DNA from: Parcubacteria group bacterium
GTDB lineage: Bacteria; Patescibacteriota; Minisyncoccia; Moranbacterales; UBA9337
Direction of reading: 5' to 3'
NCBI GenBank assembly: GCA_041662245.1
Contig: JBAZSW010000005.1
Location: 1-50,444, forward strand
DNA: 50,444 bases
Each line of letters starts with the position of its first letter. Within the stretch, counting starts at the first letter, position 1. The notes below the pieces were generated by a model. It did no database searches and was not told where the DNA came from. It was given only the letters and a program-made list of their open reading frames with translations. The position numbers and the translations under genes are program-made. Below are positions 3,368 to 50,444 of the stretch, piece by piece.

Positions 3368-4510
3368 TTGTCTAAATATCAAAAAATTATGGAAGAAGCG
3401 ATAAAATTATCTAAAAAATTGGGAGGAAAAATTGAAGTTAATTCCAAACAAAAATTGACTAAAGAAAATTTAGCAGTGCTATATACCCCTGGAGTAGCTA
3501 GTGTTTCTAATGCGATTGCTCGAGATAAAAACTTATCTTTCGACTACACCATTCGTAAAAATACAGTAGCGGTTATTTCTGACGGAAGTGCTGTCTTGGG
3601 ACTGGGTAATATCGGACCAGAAGCAGCTCTGCCTGTAATGGAGGGTAAAGCACTTTTATTTAAAGAATTGGCAGGGGTAAATGCCTTTCCGATTGTGATT
3701 GATACGCAAGATTCTGACAAAATTATTGAAATTATCAAAAATATTGCTCCGACTTTTGGCGGGATAAATCTGGAGGATATTTCAGCACCGAGATGTTTTA
3801 AAATTGAAGAAAAATTAAAAAAAGAATTAAATATTCCGGTGTTTCATGATGATCAACACGGAACAGCCATTGTAGTTTTGGCAGGATTAATCAATGCACT
3901 TAAGGTGATTAATAAAAAAATGGGTAAAATTAAAATTGTAATTAGTGGAGTGGGAGCAGCAGGAGTGGCGATTGCCAAGTTGCTCATTGCCTATGGCGCT
4001 AAAAATATCATAATGGTGGACAGCCAAGGAATTATTTTTAAAGAAAGAGATGGCGGACTAAATGATTCCAAAATGGAAATTGCCAAAATTACTAATCCTC
4101 AAAATTTAATGGGGACTATCCGAGATGCTCTTTGTGGGGCAGATGTTTTCATTGGAGTTTCGGCACCCAATTTGGTAAATAATGTAGATATTTCTAAGAT
4201 GAATAAAAACGCTATAGTATTTGCCATGGCCAATCCTGTGCCGGAGATTATGCCTGAGTTAGCTAAACAGGGTGGGGCTAAAATTGTGGCTACGGGAAGC
4301 TCTCGATACCCTAATCAGCTTAATAATGTTTTGGTTTTTCCAGGAATTTTTTTGGGGGCTTTAGGCAAAAGAGTGAGATTGATAACTACCGAACATAAAC
4401 TAAAAGCAGCTCAAGTTTTGGCGGGACTAGTAAAAAAACCAACAGCTAATAAAATTATTCCCAATGCTCTAGATAAAAGAGTAGCCAAGAAAATAGCGGA
4501 AATATTTTAG
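3368..4510 (+). CDS. NAD(P)-dependent malic enzyme (short, about 380 aa)
   Basis: LYTPGVA, ISDGSAVLGLGNIGP, LPVMEGKALLFK, FGGINLEDI, PVFHDDQHGTAIV and SGVGAAG blocks. Track start is TTG 3368; ATG 3389 (MEEAIK) is an alternative. Confidence 0.9.
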   Translation: MSKYQKIMEEAIKLSKKLGGKIEVNSKQKLTKENLAVLYTPGVASVSNAIARDKNLSFDYTIRKNTVAVISDGSAVLGLGNIGPEAALPVMEGKALLFKELAGVNAFPIVIDTQDSDKIIEIIKNIAPTFGGINLEDISAPRCFKIEEKLKKELNIPVFHDDQHGTAIVVLAGLINALKVINKKMGKIKIVISGVGAAGVAIAKLLIAYGAKNIIMVDSQGIIFKERDGGLNDSKMEIAKITNPQNLMGTIRDALCGADVFIGVSAPNLVNNVDISKMNKNAIVFAMANPVPEIMPELAKQGGAKIVATGSSRYPNQLNNVLVFPGIFLGALGKRVRLITTEHKLKAAQVLAGLVKKPTANKIIPNALDKRVAKKIAEIF

Positions 4511-6438: not shown

Positions 6439-6744
6439 ATGGTACATATGAAAAAGAATATTAAGAAAAATATAGAAAAAATATATAAGGCGGATGAAGT
6501 TTTGATTATGCTCGAAAGCATTGATGATAATGTCGCCGTTATAGCTGAACAACATCTCAGTATAAATAATCGCTTAGACAGTATCGATAATCGTTTGGAT
6601 AATATGCAATCAGATTTAGATATAGTAAAGAGTGATGTTTCAGATATTAAGTATGATTTAAGACAAAAAGTTAGCTATGATGAATTTGAAAAGATGGAAA
6701 AAAGAGTGCTTAAATTAGAGAAGCTTGTTTCTGCAAAATTTTAA
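6439..6744 (+). CDS. small coiled-coil protein, function unknown
   Basis: 101 aa with heptad-like NRLDSIDNRLDNMQSDLDIVKSDVSDIK. A terminator follows. Confidence 0.6.
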   Translation: MVHMKKNIKKNIEKIYKADEVLIMLESIDDNVAVIAEQHLSINNRLDSIDNRLDNMQSDLDIVKSDVSDIKYDLRQKVSYDEFEKMEKRVLKLEKLVSAKF

Positions 6745-6922: not shown

Positions 6923-7534
6923 ATGGATATAAAAACAAAAATATTTTGGTTGGTAATCGGACTTTTATTAGTATCCTCTTTTGCTTTGACTTTTTATCGT
7001 TATATAATCAAAAAAGATTATATGATTCAGGCACAGATGGATTGCGATCCTTATACGGAAACTTGTTTTGTCTGGAAATGTGACCCTGCTAGTGATGTAG
7101 ATGGAGAAAAATGTACCGGTGACGCGGAGAATGATATTTGGTATTACAAACTTATAAAAAGAAATGCTAGCCTAATTCCCGATTGCGATCCTACGGATGA
7201 AAATTGTGAAGCATTGGCTTGTGAAAATAATGAGCCTGAATGTCACTTTATATTATGTGATGAAACCAATAAGGAGGAGCTGGGTTCAGAAGAGTGTACT
7301 GATCCGATTAAATATTCGTTAGAAAATCCAATGGAAGAAGATGCTGTCTGTGAGGAGGGTGATGCGGAATGTTTCAATAATGCCCAAGATAATGCTGAGG
7401 GCAATGATGCCAGTAGTGATGAAGCGGAGGGCGAAGAAGAATCAATGACTCAAACTACTCAAGACGTTATTTCATCTCAGGTAGTGCCAGAAGATGAAGC
7501 TAACGATAAGGGTGATTTGCCAGTAGTTAAATAA
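6923..7534 (+). CDS. membrane-anchored, cysteine-rich, highly acidic exported protein
   Basis: N-terminal TM segment (IFWLVIGLLLVSSFALTFY), then many Cys in C-x-spaced pairs and an acidic D/E-rich tail. Confidence 0.65.
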   Translation: MDIKTKIFWLVIGLLLVSSFALTFYRYIIKKDYMIQAQMDCDPYTETCFVWKCDPASDVDGEKCTGDAENDIWYYKLIKRNASLIPDCDPTDENCEALACENNEPECHFILCDETNKEELGSEECTDPIKYSLENPMEEDAVCEEGDAECFNNAQDNAEGNDASSDEAEGEEESMTQTTQDVISSQVVPEDEANDKGDLPVVK

Positions 7535-42668: not shown

Positions 42669-42962
42669 TTAGAATCTGTTTCCTCCTCTGAAACCACCGC
42701 GATCTTCTCGTGGTTGCATTGGACGAGCTTCGTTTACTGTTAGTTTTCTTCCTTCTAACTCTTGGCCATTGAACATATCAATAGCTTTTTGAGCTTCTTC
42801 ATCGGCAGACATTTCAACGAATCCAAAACCTTTGCTTCGACCAGTAGCTTTATCATTGATGATAACTGCTGATTCGACTGCTCCAGCTTGTGCGAAAAGT
42901 TGATTTAAATCTGCATCCTTAAGTGTATAAGGAAGATTTCCAACATATAATTTCTTTGCCAT
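42669..42962 (-). CDS. RRM-type RNA-binding protein
   Basis: RNP-2 LYVGNL and RNP-1 KGFGFVEM, with an RGG-like tail. Confidence 0.9.
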   Translation of the reverse strand: MAKKLYVGNLPYTLKDADLNQLFAQAGAVESAVIINDKATGRSKGFGFVEMSADEEAQKAIDMFNGQELEGRKLTVNEARPMQPREDRGGFRGGNRF

Positions 42963-43182
42963 ATTTGCTTTTAACTATTTATAAAATAAATTATAGATAG
43001 CTAATTTGTTGTATTTTACTATCTTGCTTCGACCGCGTACTAAACTCATTAATGAATTAAACGAAAAGATGCACGAACAAGTTGCTATTATTGTAGCAGA
43101 GAGGGGAGAATTATGCAATAAAATTGATGAATTATGAATTAAGAATTTGGGAATATGAGAATTTGGGAATTTAAAAAATACT

Positions 43183-43218
43183 GTCGTTGCGAAACGTTAC
43201 TCCGTCGTAGCAATCTAG
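43183..43218 (+). repeat. short dispersed-repeat variant (GTCGTTGCGAA...GTAGCAATCTAG)
   Basis: Same end architecture as the GTCAT...ATCTC family. Confidence 0.4.
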
Positions 43219-43265
43219 AATTTAATTTCTAATAACTTAATTTTCAATTTATGTACTGCAAGTGT

Positions 43266-43350
43266 GTCATTTCGACTCGACTCGCTAAAGCTACTGCGAA
43301 GCGGACTGGATAAATATTTGTACTCAAGTATTTAGCAGTGGAGAAATCTA
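43266..43350 (+). mobile_element. MITE-like dispersed element, copy A2
   Basis: GTCATTTCGACTCGACTCGC...TTTAGCAGTGGAGAAATCTA. The ends and internal ATAAAT..TACTCA..TTTAG blocks match A1. Confidence 0.6.
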
Positions 43351-43450
43351 TCGAGTTGTTAAAATTTATTAAAAAATATTTAAAAACCCCATTAAATAAG
43401 CTATAAATCGTAAATTTTGGGTTTAAAATAAATAGATTGTTTCAGGGGTA

Positions 43451-43479
43451 TTGACAAGATTTGGATAGTGTGCTATGTT
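43451..43479 (+). promoter_or_regulatory. consensus-like promoter of module 1: TTGACA, 17-nt spacer, TATGTT
   Basis: Read directly from the sequence. Confidence 0.6.
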
Positions 43480-43568
43480 CGAGTGTCGATAGGGGAGAGG
43501 GTTATTGTTGATGTCGATAATAAGCACATTCAAATTTAAAGGATTAAGGTATATTCAAACGAGGTAAG

Positions 43569-43650
43569 ATGTGATGGGAAAAATGAGTTTTTCTTGTCTC
43601 GCCATAGTTTTAACGAAGGCGGATGGATGAATTTATTTTTCCCATCGCAT
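43569..43650 (+). ncRNA. conserved long leader hairpin, module 1 (18-bp stem ATGTGATGGGAAAAATGA / TTATTTTTCCCATCGCAT)
   Basis: The two G-U pairs are valid only on the + strand. The paralogous hairpin at 44285..44343 has compensatory changes. Confidence 0.6.
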
Positions 43651-43735
43651 CCAGAATCGGAGCGACCCTCGGGAGTAACCCTAAAAGTCCCCAGCACGAA
43701 CGCTTGGGGAGAAAATTCCAAAAGGAGGAATTGCT

Positions 43736-43873
43736 ATGCACCAGAGAACAACGATGAGAAAAAATATTTTTTATTTCGCCATTGATGCCACCGGTCAGTT
43801 GGGCCCGTTCAACACCTTTATGATGAAAAAAATTCCTTCGATGCTACCGGTCCTGTCGCCCCCCTCGGCGTAG
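43736..43873 (+). CDS. candidate 45-codon GC-rich small ORF (module 1)
   Basis: SD AAAGGAGG lies 7 nt before the ATG. MHQRTTMRKNIFYFAIDATGQLGPFNTFMMKKIPSMLPVLSPPSA, TAG at 43871. The codon style is unlike the rest of the window, so it may be non-coding. Confidence 0.35.
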   Translation: MHQRTTMRKNIFYFAIDATGQLGPFNTFMMKKIPSMLPVLSPPSA

Positions 43874-44089
43874 CTACGGCCCCGTTTCTGTGCCCCCGAG
43901 AAGAGATTGAAATCTCGGGCGCACATTCATCGGCCTGATTGGATTACTGATTATATTCGCTGGACATTATTTCAGGACGCCTGAATAATGGTTGAAGGGG
44001 GATACATGAGGTAACTTACTCGGTATTTTTTACGAAGGTCCATCTGTCTCAGGTGGATATCGAAATTAAAAAATATCGGAAACACAATC

Positions 44090-44126
44090 AAAAAGGATAT
44101 TAACCTAACGGTTCAATATCCTTTTT
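44090..44126 (+). terminator. intrinsic terminator of module 1
   Basis: AAAAAGGATATT-aacctaacggttc-AATATCCTTTTT. Confidence 0.7.
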
Positions 44127-44209
44127 AATTTGATTAAAAATAAATAAAGAGTAGGCGAAACTTTGAATTTAAAATCTAAAAGGATTAGAGAAGTTTAATC
44201 GTGGACTAT

Positions 44210-44238
44210 TTGACAGCCAAATAACTTTTTGCTAATAT
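44210..44238 (+). promoter_or_regulatory. consensus-like promoter of module 2: TTGACA, 17-nt spacer, TAATAT
   Basis: Read directly from the sequence. Confidence 0.6.
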
Positions 44239-44284
44239 TAATTTAGTTATTTGAAAGAAAAAAGTTTAAAAATATTCGTGAGAA

Positions 44285-44343
44285 ATGTGACAGGGAAAAA
44301 TGATTTTTTTAGTAACGCAAAGAATTTATTTTCCTTGTCGCAT
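44285..44343 (+). ncRNA. conserved long leader hairpin, module 2 (ATGTGACAGGGAAAAATGA / TTTATTTTCCTTGTCGCAT)
   Basis: Same flanks as module 1 (ATGTGA...TCGCAT), with GATGGG/CCCATC replaced by GACAGGG/CCTTGTC. Confidence 0.6.
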
Positions 44344-44434
44344 TTGAGTCAGAGACATTTCTGATCATGACGATCAAGGGTGGAAGTATAACCGATTTTT
44401 TTTGTTGTAACCTTCGCAAAAGGAGATCACCGTT

Positions 44435-44593
44435 ATGAAACACTCATTCCCACCCACCCACCATTCAGCAATCGTGTATATCCAGGTTGAAACCCCGATC
44501 GCTGCCGGCGCAACCAACATGGAAGCGTGTGCCCTGGCCCCCACTGATGCCGTCAAGATTACCGCTCCCTTGCAGACTGGCCTGCTGATCTGA
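44435..44593 (+). CDS. candidate 52-codon GC-rich small ORF (module 2)
   Basis: SD AAAAGGAGA lies 9 nt before the ATG. MKHSFPPTHHSAIVYIQVETPIAAGATNMEACALAPTDAVKITAPLQTGLLI, TGA at 44591. GC-rich codons are atypical for this window. Confidence 0.35.
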   Translation: MKHSFPPTHHSAIVYIQVETPIAAGATNMEACALAPTDAVKITAPLQTGLLI

Positions 44594-44664
44594 TACCGTG
44601 CCGTGTAAATGTTTTTGACTTTTTTTAACTGGTATATTTTTTATACCGTATCTTTGCAGAGGAT

Positions 44665-44697
44665 GGGATACCAAGCTAACGCTAGGTATCCCTTTTT
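44665..44697 (+). terminator. intrinsic terminator of module 2
   Basis: GGGATACC-aagctaacgcta-GGTATCCC-TTTTT. The T-run is present only on the + strand. Confidence 0.75.
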
Positions 44698-44725
44698 ATT
44701 TTAAAATAAATTTAAAATTGTTGGC

Positions 44726-45124
44726 TTATCTAGTAATTCCAAAATAATCTAAAGTTGGCATAATATTGGGAGCGAGATTTTCGCTTGCGAGATTTTCTAG
44801 TGAAATCCATTTCCACTCTCTGATATCTGCTCCTTGTTTTATTTCGCCAATTCTTTGGGCTAGGTAATGAACGAGGATGACATCGATTTTTCCGTCAGGA
44901 GTTTCTTTTGTGGCGTGAAATAAAAATGGATTTTCATCTAAGATTTCTAGTTCAATTCCCATTTCTTCCTTGGTTTCTCTTTTCGCTGCTTCAATTAAGT
45001 TATCATCAAAATCTTCCACTCTTCCACCACAAAATTTCCAAAACTCTGTGTCCCCGTGTTGATTAAGTAGAACTTTGTTATCCTCTATGATAACCGGACC
45101 AGAGGCGATGATTATTTTATTCAT
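44726..45124 (-). CDS. Nudix hydrolase
   Basis: Complete Nudix box GGRVEDFDDNLIEAAKRETKEEMGI. Confidence 0.85.
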   Translation of the reverse strand: MNKIIIASGPVIIEDNKVLLNQHGDTEFWKFCGGRVEDFDDNLIEAAKRETKEEMGIELEILDENPFLFHATKETPDGKIDVILVHYLAQRIGEIKQGADIREWKWISLENLASENLAPNIMPTLDYFGITR

Positions 45125-45167
45125 ATATTTGAGATTAATTATTATCTTTTATCGACTATTGTTTTTT

Positions 45168-45244
45168 GTCATCCCAGAAAATAGAATTTCTTAGCGATCC
45201 GCCAGCCAGCGGAGAGCGGTAGAAATTCATTTATGTGGGATCTC
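45168..45244 (+). mobile_element. dispersed-repeat variant (GTCATCCCAG...GTGGGATCTC), copy A3a
   Basis: End motifs are of the same family, with an internal GC-rich CCGCCAGCCAGCGGAGAGCGG. Confidence 0.45.
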
Positions 45245-45250
45245 ATTTTA

Positions 45251-45303
45251 GATTCCTCCACTTCTAAATTTCTGAGTACAGAAATTTATGCGGTCGGAAT
45301 GAC
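45251..45303 (-). mobile_element. MITE-like dispersed element, truncated copy A3b
   Basis: GATTCCTCCACTTCTAAATTTCTGAGTAC...ATGCGGTCGGAATGAC matches A1/A4 but lacks the central hairpin. Confidence 0.6.
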
Positions 45304-45432
45304 ATACATAAATTGGGAATTGGAACTTTGACATTTTTTATCTCTTCTATATTTTAACATAAATCAATCTAATTTAGCTAGAATTTATTGTTGCATTTTT
45401 TATAGATATATTGTAGGATGAATTTAATACTG

Positions 45433-45614
45433 GTGGCTAACTCGACATACACAGTGATTCATGCGAGCTAAAACGTATAAGAAGGGGAGTAGCTAGTCAC
45501 AATGCGTCAATAATTGTTTAATTTACCCTCTGCTGATGCCAAGAAATTAAATGACTTTGGCGCAATTGAGTATTAAAAGCTGGCTAGAAATAACAGCAGA
45601 GGGAGTTCTTTTTT
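45433..45614 (+). ncRNA. candidate structured RNA or leader that ends in a terminator-like long hairpin, upstream of the zf-CHC2 ORF
   Basis: Helix GTGGCTAACT/AGCTAGTCAC (45433-42 with 45491-500) and helix CCCTCTGCTG/CAGCAGAGGG (45526-35 with 45594-603) with inner GCCAA/TTGGC, then TTCTTTTTT. Confidence 0.4.
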
Positions 45615-45637: not shown

Positions 45638-45976
45638 ATGAAAAATAGAGAAATACCTCGTTCTTATTACGATGAAGTTAAGAACGCAATTTATTGGGGT
45701 GAGATTTTGCCTAAACTTGGGATAAGATTAAAAAAAGTTAATAGAGCTGGATTGACCAGTCGTATTTGGAATTATAGGTGTAAATGTATTTTTCATAAAG
45801 AAAAAACGGCCTCACTAACATTTTTTGATAAAACAGGAACTTTTCATTGTTATGGTTGCGGAGAAAGTGGTGATATTTTTTACTTTATTTCCCGGTATTT
45901 AACAGATAATAAACGTAGCTTGCCGAGAGTTTGTAGGTGGCTAAAAAAATGTTTTAACATTCCTCTGCCTTGGTAA
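45638..45976 (+). CDS. stand-alone CHC2 (DnaG-primase-type) zinc-finger protein
   Basis: CKCIFHKEKTASLTFFDKTGTFHCYGCGESGDIFYFI matches CxxHxEKTPS...HCFGCGxxGD. 112 aa with no TOPRIM domain. SD is GAGGTG. Confidence 0.75.
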   Translation: MKNREIPRSYYDEVKNAIYWGEILPKLGIRLKKVNRAGLTSRIWNYRCKCIFHKEKTASLTFFDKTGTFHCYGCGESGDIFYFISRYLTDNKRSLPRVCRWLKKCFNIPLPW

Positions 45977-49894: not shown

Positions 49895-49952
49895 CACTAG
49901 GCGGTAAAGTAGATTGTAAAATATTTTATTAGATTATAAATCTGTATTGTAT

Positions 49953-50017
49953 GAACTGGGACGCAGAAGGGTTCGCTCAAAGAACCCAGGCCCGCAGGGA
50001 AGTCCCGTCTGGCGGCA
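49953..50017 (+). pseudogene. tRNA-derived element sharing the tRNA-Leu 3' end and trailer; no 5' acceptor strand; 6-bp hairpin with loop GCTCAAA
   Basis: GGGTTC-GCTCAAA-GAACCC (49969..49987). The 3' end GTCCCGTCTGGCGGCA parallels GTCCCACTCGCGGCA of tRNA-Leu. The trailer repeat 50014..50050 matches 49891..49927. Confidence 0.45.
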
Positions 50018-50073
50018 CACTAAGTGGTAAAGTAGATTGTAAAATGTTTATTTGATTGTAAAATTAATGAAAA

Positions 50074-50147: not shown

Positions 50148-50202
50148 CATTTTATTTTTAGTTGCAATTAATGTAATTAAAATTTAAATAAAATAGGTGG
50201 AA

Positions 50203-50444
50203 GGGCGTATAGCTCAGTTGGTTAGAGAACGCTCGCCACGGCGAGTAATGACAAGGTTATCGAAGTTTTAAAAGTTAAAGTAGTTTACAGTTATGGGCGT
50301 ATAGCTCAGTTGGTTAGAGAACGCTCGCCACGGCGAGTAATGACAAGGTTATCGAAGTTTTAAAAGTTAAAGTAGTTTACAGTTATGGGCGTATAGCTCA
50401 GTTGGTTAGAGAACGCTCGCCACGGCGAGTAATGACAAGGTTAT
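50203..50444 (+). repeat. perfect 92-bp tandem repeat, 2.6 units to the window end; each unit starts with a tRNA 5'-half-like segment
   Basis: Units start at 50203, 50295 and 50387. GGGCGTATAGCTCAGTTGGTTAGAGAAC gives an acceptor and D-arm, followed by a GCTCGCC-AC-GGCGAG hairpin and non-tRNA sequence. There is no T-arm and no 3' acceptor. Confidence 0.8.

Follow-up and report, generated by a model that had tools for sequence, protein, structure and literature searches.

A conserved hairpin leader and two candidate small-peptide mRNAs in a gene-poor gap of a Moranbacteria genome

SgrS/SgrT, RNAIII/hld and SR1/SR1P are small-protein mRNAs or dual-function RNAs. Stabilising or processing hairpins in 5' untranslated regions (UTRs) are known from the ompA 5' stem-loops, the aprE and ermC leaders of Bacillus subtilis and the RNase III sites of the early mRNAs of phage T7. 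Here we compare with these systems two transcription units, A and B, on the + strand of a 50,444-nucleotide (nt) stretch of Parcubacteria group DNA (contig JBAZSW010000005.1, hereafter the window), in the gap between an RRM gene and a Nudix gene. Each unit consists of a promoter, a long hairpin, a strong Shine-Dalgarno sequence (SD) with an ATG, a short open reading frame (ORF) and an intrinsic terminator. The reading that we favour, at a probability of roughly 55%, is that of two predicted, strongly transcribed mRNAs for small, rapidly diverging peptides, whose conserved hairpin leader would act at the level of RNA. The units would be paralogous mini-genes, each transcribed on its own and confined to a single clade of Candidatus Moranbacteria.

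Like SgrS/SgrT, RNAIII/hld and SR1/SR1P, the units have the layout of a short independent transcript bounded by a terminator, with a small ORF (sORF) of fewer than 60 codons within conserved structured RNA. Unlike them, they have a 5' leader with one hairpin and hypervariable peptides of G+C-rich coding, and no sequence or structural similarity to these RNAs was found. As in the ompA, aprE, ermC and T7 mRNAs, a long stable stem-loop in the leader leaves the SD free, and its structure is maintained by compensatory changes. In contrast to these hairpins, that of the units lies 40-80 nt after the likely transcript start rather than at the 5' end, and its stem is longer (22-35 bp). The units are best described as a known kind, sORF-bearing transcripts with structured leaders, matching no described family. 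What sets them apart is the in-frame G+C-rich codons in a 32% G+C genome, and the combination of an invariant leader with a hypervariable peptide.

Architecture of the gap and its two units

Patescibacteria genomes are small and densely packed, so that 1.7 kb without an annotated gene stands out. The gap (42963-44725) lies between the RRM gene (42669-42962, - strand) and the Nudix gene (44726-45124, - strand), the latter convergent with the units. Its longest ORF on either strand is 69 amino acids (aa), and the ten longest frames had no Pfam match. In 100-nt windows, the G+C content of the units reached 0.58-0.62, versus about 0.32 across the 50 kb. Loci compared with the window are designated by L numbers (L049, L057, etc.); two of them, L001 and L209, are identical contigs of the same strain as the window and added no information. 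The principal features, all on the + strand, are as follows.

43451-43479, +: promoter of unit A, with -35 TTGACA (43451-43456), a 17-nt spacer and a TG-extended -10 TATGTT (43474-43479)
43486-43567, +: leader of unit A 5' of the hairpin, carrying the motif AAGCACATTCAAATTT (43522-43537), from a four-species alignment
43568-43651, +: hairpin A, long form with an apical CGCC..GGCG stem-loop; inverted repeat, fold of -43 kcal/mol
43689-43728, +: small G+C stem of unit A, CCCCAGC-ACGAAC-GCTTGGGG, followed by the SD AAAGGAGG (43721-43728)
43736-43873, +: sORF A, 45 codons behind AAAGGAGG; G+C by codon position 0.38/0.42/0.62
44090-44126, +: intrinsic terminator of unit A, near-palindromic with a T run on both sides; inverted repeat, fold
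44210-44238, +: promoter of unit B, with TTGACA, 17 nt and a TG-extended -10 TAATAT
44284-44344, +: hairpin B, short form; inverted repeat, the L057 orthologue having a long apical insert as in hairpin A
44345-44434, +: leader of unit B from hairpin to start codon, including the SD AAAAGGAGA (44418-44426)
44435-44593, +: sORF B, 52 codons behind AAAAGGAGA; G+C by codon position 0.58/0.48/0.65
44665-44697, +: intrinsic terminator of unit B, GGGATACC..GGTATCCC, then T5; inverted repeat, fold

Most of this layout had been proposed in an earlier sequence-only reading, and it held up on inspection. The absence of long ORFs was borne out by the 69-aa maximum. The twin promoters with TTGACA and a 17-nt spacer were recovered, both scoring 10/12 with an extended -10 TG, and so were the SDs and the ORFs of 45 and 52 codons, with their ATGs at 43736 and 44435. 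Both terminators proved to be stable stems followed by T runs, and they are kept in L057; a simple consensus terminator scanner missed them owing to its own stem and loop criteria. The hairpin said to be common to the units was confirmed by a joint two-arm pattern, which matched exactly two sites in the window, hairpins A and B, where the chance expectation was 0. The claim that the ORFs are G+C-rich stood in part: windows of 0.58-0.62 are present, whereas ORF A itself is only 0.47, and the peak of unit A runs about 70 nt past its stop codon. Units A and B are alike only in promoter type, hairpin and layout, the remainder being unalignable.

A strict promoter pattern, TTGAC[AT]..TGnTAnnnT, occurred at three sites in the 50 kb window, two of which head units A and B; a loose promoter scan gave no more sites than shuffled sequences did. 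L053, L075, L204 and L049, whose Nudix proteins are 68-83% identical to that of the window, all keep the unit A promoter together with its spacer. Its 17-nt spacer (43457-43473) reads AGATTTGGATAGTGTGC in the window and AGATTTCAATAGTATGC in these four relatives, and a block about 60-110 nt upstream, AAACACGCCATAAATYG, is also kept across species. The conserved spacer and upstream block suggest operator or activator sites. The leader motif of unit A takes the form AAGTACYTTYAAAT in the relatives, being conserved among species with Nudix proteins only 68-83% identical, and the hairpin-then-SD module upstream of sORF A is also present in L053, L204, L075 and L049. The predicted leader is about 200-250 nt long in each transcript.

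Conservation of the leader and coding signal of the sORFs

The arms shared by hairpins A and B are ATGTGA..GGGAAAA and TTTATTTT..TCGCAT. A covariance model of the hairpin, R1, gave hairpin A a score of 109.6 bits. When searched against the window and about 1 Mb from 160 related loci, R1 was significant only at the Nudix-RRM locus, in the window, L057, L053/56/59, L075, L074/147, L049/50/124-126 and L204/205. The hairpin element therefore recurs in about six related lineages, and only at this Nudix-gap-RRM locus. Exact-pattern scans gave no match in Genome Taxonomy Database (GTDB) genomes and none in Joint Genome Institute (JGI) metagenomes; in IMG/VR they gave 47 loci, all of them chance SD-ATG or A+T-rich matches without the partner arm.

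All nine hairpin copies fold, with stems of 22-35 bp and energies of -25 to -50 kcal/mol. The MAFFT alignment of the nine was out of structural register, and pairs were compared on the individual folds instead. The foot of the hairpin, AUGUG/CGCAU, is nearly constant and includes an invariant U-G pair. Above the foot, pairs are exchanged with compensation (GC to UA or AU, UA to CG, AU to GU or UG), and RNAalifold reported double changes in 7 of 23 hairpin pairs, over about six independent lineages. R1 scored higher on the + strand of the unit in eight of nine copies. Structure at the RNA level is favoured by the strand of the unit being the one with the G-U pairs and the higher model scores. 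The apical part of the hairpin is variable and can be dispensed with, being missing from hairpin B but not from its L057 orthologue. No U tract follows the long hairpin directly on its 3' side, nor does the hairpin cover the SD; in all units SD and ATG lie 60-95 nt 3' of it, with GGAGG or GGAGA 5-9 nt before the ATG.

Homologues of the Nudix protein assign the organism to Candidatus Moranbacteria. The relatives keep the gene order L19 - methyltransferase - Elp3 - (variable) - Nudix - gap - RRM - UPF0102 - DnaJ, and their Nudix-RRM gap is likewise large and gene-poor. The genes near the gap in the window encode, besides the RRM and Nudix proteins, a CHC2 Zn-ribbon protein, an Elp3-type radical SAM protein and a UbiE-like methyltransferase. 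Content of the gap in the relatives with hairpin units, with Nudix identity to the window, was as follows.

L057, Nudix 96% (aa) and 96% (nt): both units, at 85-88% DNA identity
L049/50/124-126, Nudix 83%: one hairpin unit and one unit without hairpin
L053/56/59, Nudix 82%: one hairpin unit
L204/L205, Nudix 80%: two hairpin units
L074/L147, Nudix 70%: one hairpin unit
L075, Nudix 68%: one hairpin unit

In other Moranbacteria (L061, L135/136 and L206), G+C-rich, SD-led sORF units stand at the same site without the hairpin. In L063 (2600-2900) and L134 (4480-4700), the same post-Nudix site is taken by a true small-protein gene, for a CxxC..CxxC Zn-ribbon with an RGG-rich tail, preceded by a long structured leader.

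The distribution of constraint was measured between the window and L057, for which the Nudix gene gives a baseline of 8.3% difference at third codon positions and 4% over the whole gene. The segments differed as follows.

Unit B promoter and leader (44210-44283): 1.4%, one difference
Unit B, from the hairpin up to the ATG: no difference over 90 nt
Unit A, from the hairpin up to the ATG: 3.2%
Second hairpin and SD module of unit A: 3.6%
Terminators: 3-5%, unit A 5.4% and unit B one difference
sORF B: 4.4%
sORF A: 17.7%, with 13 gap columns in addition
Unit B 3' UTR: 25%

Together with the cross-species conservation of promoter and motif, these divergences indicate that the control region is the most selected part and the peptide-coding part the fastest changing.

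The sORFs carry a signal of coding. Among 17 independent sORFs, G+C was highest at the third codon position (GC3) in 15, with a mean excess over GC1/GC2 of 0.145, versus -0.007 +/- 0.08 for simulated open frames of the same composition. Members of the sORF A family, the window and L049 copies included, can be aligned and have a C-terminal block in common, ..[FY].KKN.[FIV][DN]..G......A*, also rendered ..KKNS[FI][DN]..G....A*; TG[RQ]FAIA* is common to L135 and L206, where the differences are synonymous, and AQ..AMDSA to L204 and L135. Between the window and L057, sORF A has indels of -3, +8 and -2, which sum to a multiple of three and leave the stop codon unchanged. Translation of the sORFs is likely, given the codon periodicity in SD-defined frames and the few recurring peptide motifs. 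In the peptides, Ala, Thr, Ser and Gln are abundant and Asp and Glu scarce. The peptides are hydrophilic, with no membrane segment: the maximal 15-residue Kyte-Doolittle mean ranged over 0.03-1.21.

Each unit opens with a near-consensus sigma-70 promoter with an extended -10 and closes with the terminator-like stem and T run. The core of the leader is a hairpin of at least 22 bp (AUGUG..GGGAAAA / UUUUCCC..CGCAU), with pairing kept by compensatory changes. Under the favoured reading, the leader would most probably serve as an RNA stabiliser, as a processing site for a double-strand-specific nuclease such as RNase III, or as a control element to which a protein binds. A strong SD would then drive translation of the 45-52 codon ORF into a hydrophilic peptide. 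The leader would be under strong purifying selection, and the peptide part would diverge fast through relaxed or diversifying selection.

Several observations weigh against this reading. Clear purifying selection on the peptides is not seen in the comparisons made. In the window, about 13 codons of sORF A are out of frame relative to the orthologues, a compensated double frameshift arising from an A7/A8 run. sORF B differs from that of L057 by seven substitutions, spread 2/2/3 over the codon positions and roughly five nonsynonymous to two synonymous, plus an in-frame 3-nt indel. Only three single nucleotide polymorphisms separate the L049 and L050 units; all three lie in the sORF and are nonsynonymous. 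Across species, the sORF differences are near-even over the codon positions, and too saturated for a ratio of nonsynonymous to synonymous rates. The sORF GC3 of about 0.63 also stands apart from the 0.18-0.33 of host genes, including RRM and L19, which we take to be highly expressed; ordinary codon adaptation is therefore not the reason for it. In the 3' part of unit A, an SD-like GAAGGAGGA has no conserved start codon. Finally, L168, a contig of the L049 species, lacks 24 nt that include the 3' arm of the hairpin (deletion site at about 5735), the rest of the unit being identical. Either the hairpin is not indispensable or the contig is faulty, the choice being between a natural deletion and an assembly fault.

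The gap is a likely source of abundant products entirely missed by current annotation. Should the peptides be real, they would be candidates for the poorly understood surface or host-interaction biology of these uncultured symbionts, and the hairpin leader would be a new cis-regulatory RNA motif for Rfam. The sORF GC3 of 0.63 in a host of about 0.25 offers a test case for selection on small genes or RNA overriding mutational bias.

Competing explanations

Searches against known families returned little. Rfam 15 at gathering thresholds found only five tRNAs in the whole window; at E<=10, region 42950-44750 gave only far-sub-threshold look-alikes of miRNA-like hairpins (31 bits versus a gathering score of 70, and similar). 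No tmRNA-like or tRNA-like sequence was found by ARAGORN in 42963-44725. The statement that transfer-messenger RNA, RNase P, signal recognition particle RNA, T-boxes and riboswitches are absent was thus upheld by Rfam and ARAGORN. Ten peptides had no match in Pfam or NCBIfam, nor had ten alternative frames. An exhaustive phmmer search of sORF B against 1.84 billion representative proteins matched the peptide itself only, an exact-sequence look-up found no record, and a profile of the sORF A family had two matches, both in Moranbacteria. Neither unit had a BLAST match among phage genomes, and a literature search on non-coding RNAs (ncRNAs) and sORFs of Patescibacteria or Moranbacteria found nothing relevant.

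Three origins had been offered from the letters alone: small-protein genes with structured leaders, type-I-toxin-like loci, and two copies of a large structured ncRNA. The first is the best supported, by the SD and ATG of every related unit, the GC3 periodicity and the leaders being the most conserved parts.

The main rival, possible although we judge it rather unlikely, is that the units specify a non-coding or mainly riboregulatory RNA, with a functional leader and hairpin and with ORFs that are incidental or only hold ribosomes on the RNA. Such an RNA would fit the low divergence of the leaders (0-3%) beside ORFs that diverge at or above the neutral rate, the ORF-less SD-like box conserved in the 3' part of unit A, and the orphan status of the peptides. 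G+C-rich islands in A+T-rich genomes are usually structured RNA, and the units share with OLE, GOLLD, ROOL, HEARO and raiA the form of a G+C-rich island of several hundred nt, bounded by promoter and terminator, in an A+T-rich genome. Whole units also fold better than shuffled sequences (z -5.2 for A, -4.5 for B). However, once hairpin and terminator are removed, the bodies are barely above shuffles (z -2.1 for A, -1.3 for B), and they are the least conserved parts. Unlike OLE and the others, the units thus have a poorly conserved body with little excess folding, and no Rfam match even at E<=10. This disfavours a large structured ncRNA, and the idea of two copies of one RNA was not borne out, since the paralogy of the units is limited to promoter type, hairpin and layout. 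The in-frame GC3 periodicity is hard to explain without selection related to translation, and the SD and ATG at the same place in every unit, and the peptide motifs with synonymous changes, also count on the side of the small-peptide mRNAs. If the ORFs are untranslated, the locus would represent a clade-specific ncRNA with mimics of ribosome-binding sites.

A more specific version of the peptide reading, which we regard as speculative and improbable, holds that the sORFs encode unrecognised fast-diversifying peptides of an ultra-small symbiont (effectors, bacteriocin-like or signalling peptides), controlled by a clade-specific AUGUG..CGCAU riboregulatory leader. The C-ending, G+C-rich codons would then be actively maintained against an A+T mutational bias, and the locus would pair a conserved controller with a hypervariable peptide, a system for which no counterpart has been described in Patescibacteria. 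As in precursors of bacteriocins, pheromones and ribosomally synthesised and post-translationally modified peptides (RiPPs), small paralogous ORFs occur in series, their N-terminal or flanking parts are more alike (HSxPP, LYxLSP), and divergence is fast, the three within-species polymorphisms all being nonsynonymous. In contrast to such precursors, the peptides have no double-glycine or signal leader, and genes for modification, protease or other processing, export and immunity are absent among the neighbours. A RiPP link to the radical SAM neighbour was rejected, as this gene encodes an Elp3-type tRNA modifier (TIGR01211, 516 bits) and not a peptide-modifying enzyme. A template and variable repeat of a diversity-generating retroelement was likewise rejected: by inspection of the sequence, adenines are not the only positions at which the variable part of sORF A differs between the window and L057. 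A scan of ten neighbouring genes showed no reverse transcriptase.

The hairpin could instead be primarily a DNA element (a site of recombination or inversion, a cruciform, or a mobile palindrome of the attC or REP kind) that brings in variable cargo, which we consider very unlikely. It would make sense of L075, where the hairpin interior is inverted relative to the window copy and R1 scores on both strands, of an apical part that is gained and lost between very close strains (it is absent from unit B of the window, L049, L074 and L204), of the G+C palindrome inserted in the apical loop of L053, and of downstream cargo that differs between units. Yet the hairpin is always found within a transcription unit, at a constant distance and on a single strand; its G-U pairs, including the invariant U-G, are kept on the + strand only, the strand preferred by the model in 8/9 copies; and the sORF A copies that different species have at this site are orthologues. 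Genes for an integrase, transposase or invertase are absent nearby. An integron cassette was considered separately and rejected, the surrounding genes including no integrase and the hairpin lying 3' of the promoter, not at a cassette 3' end. On reading the sequence no RYYYAAC/GTTRRRY cores were seen in the hairpin arms, although no pattern search was run.

A type I toxin-antitoxin-like locus, in which a stable structured mRNA for a small toxic peptide would be checked by an antisense RNA, is highly improbable. The type I toxin mRNAs hok, tisB, fst and txpA are matched in size class (about 450-640 nt of transcript and some 50 codons of ORF), in the long and heavily structured leader, in tandem paralogues and in rapid strain turnover. 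They are not matched in the peptides, which are hydrophilic and form no hydrophobic membrane-spanning helix (maximal 15-residue mean 0.9-1.2), or in an antisense gene, a consensus scan having shown no promoter-like or terminator-like site on the - strand within 43451-44697. The predicted 5'-3' fold-back of unit B is not conserved, falling in the 3' UTR that is 25% different in L057 while its 5' partner is unchanged.

Equally hard to credit is a decayed longer gene or recent foreign DNA with a coincidental pattern of promoter, hairpin and terminator: the GC3 of 0.63 versus 0.25 looks foreign, the adjoining content is strain-variable and the sORF A of the window is frameshifted, but no frame has a Pfam match, the phage collection gave no DNA match, leaders and terminators are under constraint, and the same architecture recurs, in conserved synteny, in six or more lineages with Nudix proteins 68-96% identical, so that the fragments of a longer gene envisaged in the sequence-only reading are disfavoured.

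Three other identities were tried and rejected. A reading of AAAGTCCCC as RNase P found no P4 partner, and Rfam was silent. An alternative genetic code with UGA read-through is not indicated, the neighbouring genes being intact under code 11. As for a leader peptide of the attenuation type (erm, cat or trp), the terminator ends each unit and no further gene follows, the Nudix gene being convergent.

Additional modules and neighbouring sequences

The 3' part of unit A holds three further elements.

43890-43924, +: post-ORF hairpin, GTGCCCCCGAGA..TCTCGGGCGCAC, identical in L057
43960-44014, +: second module, with CTGGA, a hairpin (43967-43988), the SD-like GAAGGGGGA (43994-44002) and a 2-codon ATG AGG TAA
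44039-44057, +: CATCTG hairpin of the 3' UTR, with a counterpart in L053 and L049, partly deleted in L057

The post-ORF hairpin is absent in L053, and another hairpin takes its place in L049. The second module is 87% identical to L053; L057 has ATA in place of its ATG and L049 lacks a start codon at that point, so that the module is read as a decayed or non-coding cistron. A module of this kind, a small G+C hairpin with an ACGAAC- or ACGAU-type loop directly before an SD, thus occurs upstream of sORF A and again at 43960-44014, and stands in equivalent positions in L053, L049, L204 and L075. Unit B of L204 and the unit of L074 have two to four hairpin and SD modules, each with an sORF, and in L204, L075, L074 and L206 one module carries a mini-ORF of 5-8 codons (MKxx[IF]* in L204, L075 and L074). 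To judge from these copies, the units resemble short arrays in which each cistron is made of hairpin, SD and sORF, and in which some cistrons have decayed.

Short palindromes were noted in the relatives. A 20-nt G+C palindrome, CCTGCCTGCCGGCA(A/G)GCAGG, occurs at unrelated sites in L053 (7085-7105, in the hairpin apical loop), L075 (about 5140) and L130 (about 4860); it looks like a small mobile palindrome, and is absent from the window with up to three mismatches allowed. Another palindrome, TTGCCATATATCCTTATATGGCAA, lies between the sORF unit and Nudix in L053 (about 6490-6520), L049 (about 7225-7250) and L207 (about 4010-4035), and a 29-nt indel at this site separates the otherwise identical L053 and L056.

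On the RRM side of the gap, segment 42963-43233 (- strand, RRM leader side) is 87% identical in L053/L055 and 73-79% in L049, well above the surrounding intergenic DNA. Within it, at about 43183-43217, lies a hairpin, CTGTCGTTGCGAAACG..CGTCGTAGCAAT; the equivalent hairpins of L053, L049 and L075 covary (GTCATTGCGAG..CGTGGCAAT). By its conservation, this block is probably an RRM 5' UTR element. On the Nudix side, 45125-45389 is 100% identical to L057, after which similarity ends abruptly, so that the gene at 45638-45976, for a CHC2 (primase-type) Zn-ribbon, counts as strain-variable. It is preceded, at about 45528-45613, by an inverted repeat of 10 bp, CCCTCTGCTG/CAGCAGAGGG, and the L206 version of this stand-alone CHC2 Zn-ribbon has 147 aa.

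The last observations concern the far end of the window. A sequence of about 97 nt, with a tRNA-like 5' half, GGGCGTATAGCTCAGTTGGTTAGAGAACGCTCGCCACGGCGAG, followed by non-tRNA sequence, is repeated three times in tandem at 50200-50444, and the array runs off the window end; neither ARAGORN nor Rfam called these repeats. Between tRNA-Leu and tRNA-Val, at 49950-50045, there is a degenerate copy of the tRNA-Leu 3' end together with its downstream GGTAAAGTAGATTGTAAAAT, and this duplicate may have been left by an insertion at the tRNA.

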